NCBI RefSeq assembly: GCF_013315695.1
Contig: NZ_CP054353.1
Direction: 5' to 3' (one strand)
Source: Escherichia coli
Lineage (GTDB): Bacteria; Pseudomonadota; Gammaproteobacteria; Enterobacterales; Enterobacteriaceae
Length of the DNA: 64,000 nucleotides
Shown: one piece after another, positions 61,818-64,000 of the stretch
How the letters are laid out: every line of letters starts with the position of its first letter
Numbering within the stretch: the stretch's first letter is position 1
The notes under the pieces: model-generated
Told to the model about the DNA's origin: nothing
The model's database searches: none
Seen by the model: only the letters and a program-made list of their open reading frames with translations
Made by a program: the position numbers and the translations under genes

Positions 61818-64000
61818 ATGAACAGGACCAGTCTCCATTATTGTCGCCGCTCAGTACTTTCCTTATTGATATCTGCCTTGATATATGCCCCGCCCGGGAT
61901 GGCGGCCTTCACTCCTGATGTTATTGGTGTGGTAAACGATGAGACTGTAGATGGCAGCCAAAAAGTAGATGAACGAGGTACAACAAATAACACTCATATT
62001 ATCAACCATGGCCAGCAGAATGTTTATGGTGGGATATCTAATGAAAGTCTTATTGAATCTGGTGGATATCAAGATATAGGACGTCATAACAATTATGTGG
62101 GGCAGGCTAATAATACAACCATTAACGGGGGCAGACAGACAATTCATGACGGGGGTATTTCCACAGGTACAATAATCGAGAGTGGCAATCAGGACGTTTA
62201 TACAGGTGGTATCAGCAATGGAACGACAATTAAGGGGGGTAATTCACACATAAGTGGGGGGACTGCGAATGGAACAATCATTGATGGTGGCAGCCAACGA
62301 GTAACAACTCAGGGGCATGTCGACAGTACAACGATAAATAAGTCTGGCTCTCAGGACGTAGTACAAGGAAGTCTGGCAACGAACACAACCATAAATGGTG
62401 GTCGACAGTATGTTGAACAGAGCACAGTAGAAACAACCACCATCAAAAATGGCGGTGAGCAAAGAGTATATGAGAGCCGTGCGCTGGACACTACGATTGA
62501 AGGCGGAACTCAGTCTCTGAATAGTAATTCAACGGCAAAAAATACGCAGATCTATTCTGGTGGTACGCAAATTGTTGATTACACCAGCACCTCGGATGTT
62601 ATTGAAATTTATTCCGGTGGCGTGCTTGATGTTAGAGGTGGTATGGCAACAAATGTTACTCAGCACGATGGAGCCGCTTTAAAAGTAACGACTTACGATT
62701 TGACGGTGAGCGGTACGAATAGTGAAGGGGCATTCTCCATCCACAATAACGTGGCAGACAATGTGTTGCTGGAAAACGGTGGTCATTTAGACGTATATGG
62801 TTCGGCAACCAGGACGATAATTAAAGATAAAGGAACAATGTCAGTTTTAACGAATGCTAAAGCTGATGCGACCCGAATAGATAATGGCGGGGTTATGGAT
62901 GTCGCCGGAAACGCGACCAATACCATAATCAATGGTGGTACACAGAATATTAATAATCATGGTATTGCCACTGGCACCAATATCAACAGTGGAACGCAAA
63001 ATATCAAGAGCGGCGGGAAAGCTGACACGACAAATATCTCCTCCGGGAGCCGGCAGGTTGTTGAGAAAGATGGTACGGCAACTGGCAGCAATATTAGCGC
63101 CGGAGGCTCGCTGATTGTCTATACCGGTGGTATCGCACATGGGGTTAACCAGGAGACGGGCAGTGCTTTAGTTGCCAACACGGGCGCAGGGACTGATATT
63201 GAAGGATACAACAAGCTCTCTCACTTCACTATTACCGGAGGGGAGGCTAATTATGTTGTGCTGGAAAATACCGGCGAACTGACGGTAGTGGCTAAAACCA
63301 CGGCGAAAAATACTACCGTTGATGCTGGCGGTAAGCTGATTGTCCAGAAGGAGGCTAAAACAGATACCATCAGACTTAATAATGGTGGCGTTCTGGAGGT
63401 TCAGGACGGTGGTGAGGCTAAGCATGTTGAGCAACAATCCGGCGGCGCATTAATTGCTTCCACGACTTCCGGAACACTTATCGAAGGAACCAACAGTTAT
63501 GGTGATGTTTTCTACATCAGGAATTCAGAAGCTAAAAATGTAGTGCTGGAAAACGCTGGCTCATTAACAGTCGTCACTGGTTCCCGGGCAGTTGACACGA
63601 TTATTAATGCCAACGGCAAAATGGATGTTTATGGAAAAGATGTTGGTACTGTACTTAATAGTGCGGGTACCCAAACAATATATGCCAGTGCCACTTCTGA
63701 AAAAGCAAATATCAAAGGTGGCAAGCAAACGGTATATGGTTTAGCCACTGAGGCAAATATCGAAAGTGGTGAACAAATTGTTGATGGTGGGTCAACAGAT
63801 AAAACGCACATCAAAGGCGGCACGCAAACCGTTCAGAATTATGGTAAGGCGATCAATACCGATATCGTCTCTGGCCTACAACAAATTATGGCAAACGGGA
63901 CAGCGGAAGGTTCCATTATTAATGGCGGTTCACAGGTAGTTAATGAGGGCGGTCTGGCTGAAAACTCGGTACTTAATGACGGCGGCACACTCGATGTGCG
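61818..64000 (+). CDS. ypjA: AIDA-I-type autotransporter adhesin, YpjA-like: signal peptide plus repetitive passenger domain; 5' partial, runs off the window
   Basis: ATG at 61818 with AGGATGA RBS; signal peptide MNRTSLHYCRRSVLSLLISALIYAPPGMAA; open to the window end with about 19-residue repeats of the form GG-Q-V...G-A-T-I. Confidence 0.8.
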   Translation, partial: MNRTSLHYCRRSVLSLLISALIYAPPGMAAFTPDVIGVVNDETVDGSQKVDERGTTNNTHIINHGQQNVYGGISNESLIESGGYQDIGRHNNYVGQANNTTINGGRQTIHDGGISTGTIIESGNQDVYTGGISNGTTIKGGNSHISGGTANGTIIDGGSQRVTTQGHVDSTTINKSGSQDVVQGSLATNTTINGGRQYVEQSTVETTTIKNGGEQRVYESRALDTTIEGGTQSLNSNSTAKNTQIYSGGTQIVDYTSTSDVIEIYSGGVLDVRGGMATNVTQHDGAALKVTTYDLTVSGTNSEGAFSIHNNVADNVLLENGGHLDVYGSATRTIIKDKGTMSVLTNAKADATRIDNGGVMDVAGNATNTIINGGTQNINNHGIATGTNINSGTQNIKSGGKADTTNISSGSRQVVEKDGTATGSNISAGGSLIVYTGGIAHGVNQETGSALVANTGAGTDIEGYNKLSHFTITGGEANYVVLENTGELTVVAKTTAKNTTVDAGGKLIVQKEAKTDTIRLNNGGVLEVQDGGEAKHVEQQSGGALIASTTSGTLIEGTNSYGDVFYIRNSEAKNVVLENAGSLTVVTGSRAVDTIINANGKMDVYGKDVGTVLNSAGTQTIYASATSEKANIKGGKQTVYGLATEANIESGEQIVDGGSTDKTHIKGGTQTVQNYGKAINTDIVSGLQQIMANGTAEGSIINGGSQVVNEGGLAENSVLNDGGTLDV

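Follow-up and report, generated by a model that had tools for sequence, protein, structure and literature searches.

ypjA (ehaD), a probable type Va autotransporter gene of the AIDA-I/Ag43 structural class at the end of a 64-kb Escherichia coli sequence

The last part of a 64,000-nucleotide stretch of Escherichia coli DNA (contig NZ_CP054353.1 of assembly GCF_013315695.1; hereafter the window) is almost certainly ypjA (ehaD in O157:H7). This known E. coli gene encodes a classical (type Va) autotransporter that belongs structurally to the AIDA-I/Ag43 class. Positions 61818-64000 hold the 5' 2183 nt of the gene, on the plus strand. The gene itself is not new: thousands of genomes carry its annotation, and over-expression studies of it have been made. 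Its reading frame opens with an ATG at 61818, exactly where an initial annotation of this DNA had placed the start, with a Shine-Dalgarno-like AGAGGA (61804-61809) 8 nt upstream. The frame then continues for 727 codons without a stop to the end of the window, in keeping with the more than 720 codons first reported; by simple arithmetic, the chance probability of such an open frame is approximately (61/64)^727, or about 1e-15. The initial annotation had also proposed a YpjA-like product of the AIDA-I/Ag43 class, and the PGAP product name of the gene, a Pfam AIDA score of 302 bits and fold matches to Ag43 and TibA agree with it.

The first 29 residues (61818-61904) form a predicted Sec signal peptide, MNRTSLHYCRRSVLSLLISALIYAPPGMA, followed by AF. 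It combines a basic n-region (R3, R10, R11) and a hydrophobic core with G-M-A before the predicted cleavage point, and AlphaFold2 models a low-confidence helix at residues 13-23 with beta structure after it. K-12 YpjA is likewise listed with a 29-residue signal peptide in PMC13101318, where YpjA appears among display scaffolds. A Pfam search of YpjA gives no match to the ESPR extended signal peptide (PF13018). Past the signal peptide, G, T, N, S, I and V are abundant in the product of the open reading frame (ORF).

The remainder of the gene can be read in close relatives. Window positions 61400-64000 have a match of some level in 5292 of 5426 genomes and are 100% identical to five complete E. 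coli genomes; in all five, ypjA is intact, with 4569 nt encoding 1522 residues, and is named "adhesin-like autotransporter YpjA/EhaD" by PGAP. The gene is therefore cut by the window end, as had been supposed, and the stop or frameshift just past the window that the initial annotation had named as grounds for doubt is seen in none of the five. In the 1522-residue product of one of them (genome L001), Pfam finds ten AIDA stretches (447 bits), a pertactin-type junction (PF03212) at residues 1055-1177 (153 bits) and, beyond the window as expected, a beta-barrel (PF03797) at residues 1261-1500 (157 bits; 331 bits with the TIGR01414 barrel model). The product also has a proline-rich linker and ends in ...VNWSF. 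Judging from these neighbours, which are identical over the window part, the source strain would have the same junction, linker and barrel. The gene product thus shows the features of a type Va autotransporter, namely a signal peptide, a beta-helical passenger, a pertactin-type junction and a C-terminal barrel, the last two being read in the identical genomes.

K-12 YpjA and O157:H7 EhaD correspond to the window gene in position, neighbours, PGAP name and domain order, and are the same gene. The K-12 protein (b2647, 1526 residues) is 94.4% identical to the 1522-residue product over its full length and 92.6% identical over the window part by BLASTP. Differences between the two are allelic only; identity to the 1528-residue allele of E. 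coli strain 472 (L003) is 95.2%. The window and K-12 also have in common the gene order gabD, lhgO, glaH, ygaQ-like amylase, ileY, ypjC/B, pinH remnant and ypjA.

Several points weigh against reading the region as a working adhesin gene. The 3' 2387 nt, with the junction domain, linker and barrel, lie outside the window. Compared with strain MSB1_4I, the window has no mismatches over 52400-64000 and 12 mismatches plus one gap over 3-50000; given the 12 differences from the best-matching genome in the first 50 kb, the source strain cannot be equated with certainty with any of the five. An intact ypjA is missing from more than half of complete E. coli genomes, and loss of the gene is common in the species. 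Finally, the adhesion target of YpjA and its self-association are unknown according to PMC9289746.

The part of the passenger encoded in the window (61905-64000), comprising its N-terminal approximately 700 residues, is a predicted right-handed beta-helix with rungs of approximately 18 residues, as indicated by Pfam, TIGR04415, PDB, AlphaFold2 and Foldseek comparisons. Autocorrelation of residues 30-727 with BLOSUM62 peaks at lag 18 (z 10.2), followed by lags 19 (z 6.1) and 17 (z 4.2), with harmonics at lags 35-36 and 53-54; the largest absolute z in 300 shuffles is 4.6. The periodicity first described is thus real, although the repeat is not of 19 residues exactly: its length varies from 17 to 19 with a mode of 18. 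A repeat hidden Markov model (HMM), seeded from nine hand-picked units and then iterated, finds 28 units in the first 727 residues and 33 in the full protein. The Pfam AIDA family (PF16168) matches the window fragment in 8 stretches, and the TIGR04415 strand-loop-strand repeat matches it in 10 stretches (205 bits).

The units in the window form three runs, split by three copies of a module of approximately 47 residues (Q..G.AL...F.I...N..LEN.G.L.V), of which two more copies lie beyond the window. Run 1 (residues 54-253; 61977-62576) contains 11 consecutive canonical units in the HMM parse, spaced by 17-23 residues, with a predicted local distance difference test score (pLDDT) of 89-97; it overlaps the most allele-variable part of ypjA. 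It is followed by module 1 (residues 282-326, QHDGAALKV...FSIHNNVADNVLLENGGHLDV; 62661-62795), recognized by motif parse and as a member of direct-repeat family D2, with a pLDDT of 58-79. Run 2 (residues 328-434; 62799-63119) has 6 units in the HMM parse, the first two weak. Module 2 (residues 445-491; 63150-63290; motif parse and direct-repeat family D4) overlaps the best Pfam AIDA stretch (462-524), and module 3 (residues 539-585; 63432-63572; motif parse) belongs to both direct-repeat families, D2 and D4. Run 3 (residues 589-727; 63582-63998), with 8 units in the HMM parse and a pLDDT of 88-97, runs on past the window.

For the 727-residue fragment, AlphaFold2 run with 58 aligned homologues gives a model with a mean pLDDT of 87 that is all-beta after the signal-peptide helix; confidence drops only at the three interruption modules. 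Sequence searches of the PDB match the passenger to Ag43, an AIDA-I-family adhesin and TibA (E 1e-26 to 1e-30), and the C-terminal part to pertactin, BrkA and Vag8. In structure searches of the PDB with Foldseek, the best matches are Ag43 (7KOH, 7KO9, 4KH3, 7KOB) and TibA (4Q1Q), with E 6e-15 to 3e-12, and unrelated beta-helix enzymes rank below them.

The initial annotation also expected the repeat array to vary in copy number by recombination, and this expectation fails. Tandem Repeats Finder reports no tandem repeat inside the ypjA ORF. The repeat copies share only 60-75% nucleotide identity, and are poor substrates for homologous recombination because they are too diverged. Five intact alleles, four of them aligned together and the K-12 allele compared by BLASTP, encode 1522, 1524, 1526, 1526 and 1528 residues. 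Length differences among the four aligned alleles come down to a two-residue indel close to residue 326 and to 2-4 residues in the PK/PD linker; relative to the 1524-1528-residue alleles, the window allele lacks the two residues at approximately residue 326, with 0-4 residues differing in the proline-rich linker. The K-12 and window alleles differ at 4 gap positions in all, and full-length ypjA matches in a spread sample of genomes are all 4569-4587 nt long. Copy-number polymorphism of the repeats was rejected on these grounds. Of the features of a contingency locus, near-identical tandem DNA repeats are absent from the ORF, and whole-repeat differences are absent among the alleles compared.

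Strains vary instead by whether ypjA is present, broken or intact, and by divergence of its N-terminal approximately 300 residues. At least 80% of the gene is present in 2440 of 5426 genomes. Approximately 40% of genomes lack ypjA altogether, and their sole match is a 345-nt paralogue remnant near minE. Elsewhere the gene is truncated by the insertion sequences (IS) IS1 (genomes L007 and L010) or IS3 (L011), carries IS5 and IS903B insertions (H29 and H38), or has lost 1304 nt across the passenger-barrel junction, with a 10-nt overlap at the deletion junction (L006); the deletion ORFs P0004 and P0007 of the protein database lack the passenger-barrel junction and linker. The recurrence of IS hits, deletions and absence is consistent with a gene that is dispensable and located in AT-rich DNA.

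Intact copies of the gene are maintained. When the window allele is paired with each of three other intact alleles, the ratio of nonsynonymous to synonymous substitution (dN/dS) is 0.13-0.21 over most of ypjA and 0.03-0.13 over the junction and linker, with dS of approximately 0.1 in most segments (0.04-0.17 overall). The low ratio over most of the gene indicates that intact copies are maintained by purifying selection. In contrast, dN/dS rises to 0.54-0.62 over residues 30-330. Protein identity in this part (61905-62810) is 78-93% per 100 residues, compared with 94-100% elsewhere (the 22-residue tail block aside), and the DNA is most variable especially at 62018-62217, and as many as 21 sites vary per 50 nt. 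From these alignments, the distal N-terminal tip of YpjA appears to be under relaxed or diversifying selection, and the N-terminal approximately 300 residues are likely an exposed interaction surface.

The DNA directly upstream of the start codon is strongly conserved. Among 8 ypjA alleles, the 150-nt leader at 61668-61817, of which the AGAGGA motif is part, varies at a single site; most flanking blocks have 4-13 variable sites for every 50 nt, and the 5' coding region has as many as 21. In 2587 genome records, a 189-nt stretch that includes the leader (61629-61817) is conserved at 99% identity or more; for the 189 nt before it the figure is 240 records. The same stretch is 94-95% identical to a copy upstream of ycgH, a paralogue of ypjA, versus 81-84.5% for the preceding 189 nt; in all, the similarity between the ypjA and ycgH upstream regions spans approximately 350 nt before the start codon (61469-61817; approximately 5680-5990 in L008 and 3680-4000 in L012). 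A best guess from this conservation is that the leader is a core promoter and/or 5' untranslated region (UTR). It is possible, though on balance doubtful, that it functions as a cis-regulatory promoter plus 5' UTR or binding platform common to ycgH. If so, the shared leader would keep the cryptic adhesin pair ypjA/ycgH under common control. The leader and the rapidly evolving N-terminal tip would then jointly suggest an adhesin that is expressed conditionally and is under pressure to diversify, as opposed to a relic in decay.

Other explanations for the leader were considered. A structured RNA was rejected: an Rfam scan of the leader gives no match even at E <= 1, and its predicted RNA fold is no better than that of shuffled sequences (z +0.9). 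A 39-residue small ORF (61634-61753, plus strand; hypothetical protein WP_001120794.1) is annotated inside the leader in L001 and other genomes, and its peptide is identical in 5 alleles. It is invariant among ypjA alleles because the DNA there is invariant; the copy at the ycgH locus has 5 nucleotide differences, all nonsynonymous, which gives no indication that the peptide is under selection. The small ORF is probably not a real gene.

Two switch mechanisms were also rejected for ypjA. Phase variation of Ag43 depends on clustered GATC sites and OxyR binding in the flu regulatory region (Dam/OxyR); an Ag43-like switch was rejected for ypjA because no such cluster lies upstream, the 900 nt before the gene containing single GATC sites at 61158 and 61459. 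An invertase-driven switch was prompted by a recombinase remnant next to the gene, of which just a 168-nt fragment is left, and no convincing inverted repeats surround the ypjA leader. This remnant (61243-61410, plus strand) is annotated as an incomplete recombinase family pseudogene in L001 (8844-9011) and corresponds to pinH, which also adjoins ypjA as a pseudogene in K-12; it is a neighbour and synteny marker rather than a functional part. A 122-codon ORF on the minus strand (61137-61505) overlaps the remnant.

From the composition of the region, ypjA is probably poorly expressed in ordinary culture, because GC content is low, at 31-47% from approximately 55.5 kb to the window end versus 52-57% before, and no sigma-70 consensus is found on the plus strand within 1 kb upstream of the gene. 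Low-GC DNA is of the type silenced by H-NS. A literature search on H-NS and ypjA returned nothing relevant, and no direct paper on ypjA regulation was found.

When expressed, YpjA would follow the general type Va route. The 29-residue signal peptide would take the protein through Sec, the 12-stranded C-terminal barrel, with its aromatic end ...NWSF, would be inserted by the beta-barrel assembly machinery (BAM), and the passenger would be threaded outward C-terminus first. Folding would be vectorial, starting at the pertactin-like autochaperone region and giving a long, surface-retained beta-helix stalk. The literature reports that over-expressed YpjA/EhaD promotes surface adhesion and biofilm formation. 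Roles in initial adhesion and in biofilm formation are reported for YfaL, YpjA and YcgV (PMC3796261, which cites Roux 2005), and ehaD/ypjA is among the autotransporter genes of Shiga toxin-producing E. coli associated with biofilm (PMC4076661, PMC12547504). YpjA is placed in Group 4 with self-associating autotransporters in PMC9289746 (citing Wells 2008 and Roux 2005), which links YpjA/EhaD to biofilm formation by a mechanism described as unknown and with the structure unpublished. The present results bear on when this normally silent adhesin is expressed and what ligand it binds; the pattern of presence and breakage, the selection map, and ycgH with the leader can help in typing the adhesins of E. 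coli genomes.

The reading of the region as a functional adhesin gene has to be set against other explanations. The gene might be broken past the window in the source strain by an IS, a deletion or a frameshift, leaving a pseudogene and no working autotransporter. Decay is indeed frequent elsewhere (IS1, IS3, IS5, IS903B, the 1304-nt deletion and the P0004 and P0007 deletion ORFs), and just 2440 of the 5426 genomes retain at least 80% of ypjA. However, the 4569-nt gene is intact in 5 of 5 genomes identical over 61400-64000, one of these five matches the window at 99.97-100% identity across approximately 61.6 kb of the 64 kb compared, and the neighbouring ypjCB and ygaQ-like amylase genes, which are pseudogenes in K-12, are intact in this lineage. 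A break in the source strain is therefore very improbable. Glycosylation raises a different question: the repeats could be substrates of an autotransporter heptosyltransferase, as for AIDA-I/Aah and TibA/TibC, with adhesion dependent on the modification. TIGR04415, named for O-heptosylation targets, matches 12 stretches in the full protein, compared with 10 in the fragment, and the hyperglycosylated TibA is among the best fold matches. Nevertheless, the partner genes aah-aidA and tibC-tibA are adjacent pairs, and no glycosyltransferase gene adjoins ypjA, which has the recombinase remnant and ypjCB upstream and prophage genes or ssrA downstream. Dependence on heptosylation is thus unlikely, though less so than a broken gene.

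YpjA may also be a true self-associating autotransporter, pairing head-to-tail between cells and so causing clumping, rather than an adhesin for non-self surfaces. The nearest solved folds, those of Ag43 variants, would suit such a role, and PMC9289746, which groups YpjA with self-associating autotransporters, suggests a possible new member, although it calls the mechanism unknown and notes no published structure. YpjA is nevertheless no Ag43 orthologue, since it scores 344 bits on the Ag43 equivalog model against a cut-off of 1200, and its passenger is approximately twice as long, with five interruption modules. In addition, over-expression of EhaD in the work of Wells and colleagues (Wells et al. 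2008) reportedly led to biofilm without marked aggregation, which counts against self-association. Self-association is thus rather doubtful for YpjA, although of these alternatives it is the one that deserves most weight, and a surface adhesin of the AIDA-I/Ag43 class remains the preferred reading.

The gene lies near the end of a low-GC island that holds tRNA-Ile ileY (58596-58671) and ends past the window at the ssrA prophage integration site. The island also contains an intact ygaQ-like alpha-amylase gene (750 residues; 55786-58038, minus strand) and an intact ypjCB gene (484 residues; 59428-60882, plus strand). In K-12 and several other strains, ygaQ, and ypjC plus ypjB, are pseudogenes or split genes, whereas these flanking genes are intact in this lineage; the whole island seems better preserved here. 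The DNA downstream of ypjA varies by strain and consists of different prophages or of ssrA itself, which is directly downstream in genomes L004 and L006. The prophage 3' of ypjA has P2-like gene content (integrase, CI and CII regulators) in MSB1_4I and is CP4-57 in K-12, and CAVP880 has none. Elsewhere in the window, Rfam identifies a tRNA-Ser gene followed by four tandem tRNA-Arg genes (copies 97-99.7% identical; 24206-24795) and, on the minus strand adjoining luxS, the MicA small RNA (27684-27755), all ordinary E. coli features.

YcgH, a paralogue of YpjA encoded at the ymgD-minE locus, is a pseudogene in K-12 and intact in some strains; in most genomes ycgH is reduced to a 345-nt 3' remnant. 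YcgH has in common with YpjA the upstream leader (94-95% identity over 160 nt), the N-terminus and the types of repeat and module, and its barrel is 96-97% identical to that of YpjA at the 3' end. Its passenger is shorter: the 1012-residue ORF P0014, itself without a linker, appears to lack two blocks of approximately 200 residues of YpjA, and these blocks appear to be bounded by matching repeat positions. Block gain or loss may thus have happened between the paralogues over evolutionary time; none was found between strains at the ypjA locus among the intact alleles compared. Proteins of 58% identity that had been candidates for ypjA alleles with 200-residue in-frame deletions from repeat recombination were reassigned to YcgH, because the encoding contig places them at ymgD-minE. 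Similarly, the 345-nt matches in approximately 40% of genomes were rejected as ypjA remnants, being the ycgH remnant.

Ag43 (Flu/Cah), AIDA-I and TibA are, like YpjA, type Va autotransporters with AIDA-type beta-helix rungs, a pertactin-like junction and a 12-stranded barrel. The 344 bits of YpjA on the Ag43 equivalog (NCBIfam NF033177; cut-off 1200) make it a relative and not a member, and with 274 bits on the AIDA-I model (NF033176), against the same cut-off of 1200, it is not a member of that family either. On these scores YpjA is evidently not an orthologue of Ag43, AIDA-I or TibA. Unlike this set, it lacks an extended signal peptide; it also lacks the upstream GATC cluster of flu, and has no adjacent heptosyltransferase gene. 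The repeat type (TIGR04415) is one that it has in common with AIDA-I and TibA. Its passenger, at approximately 1050 residues, is much longer, being approximately twice that of Ag43 and interrupted by five modules.

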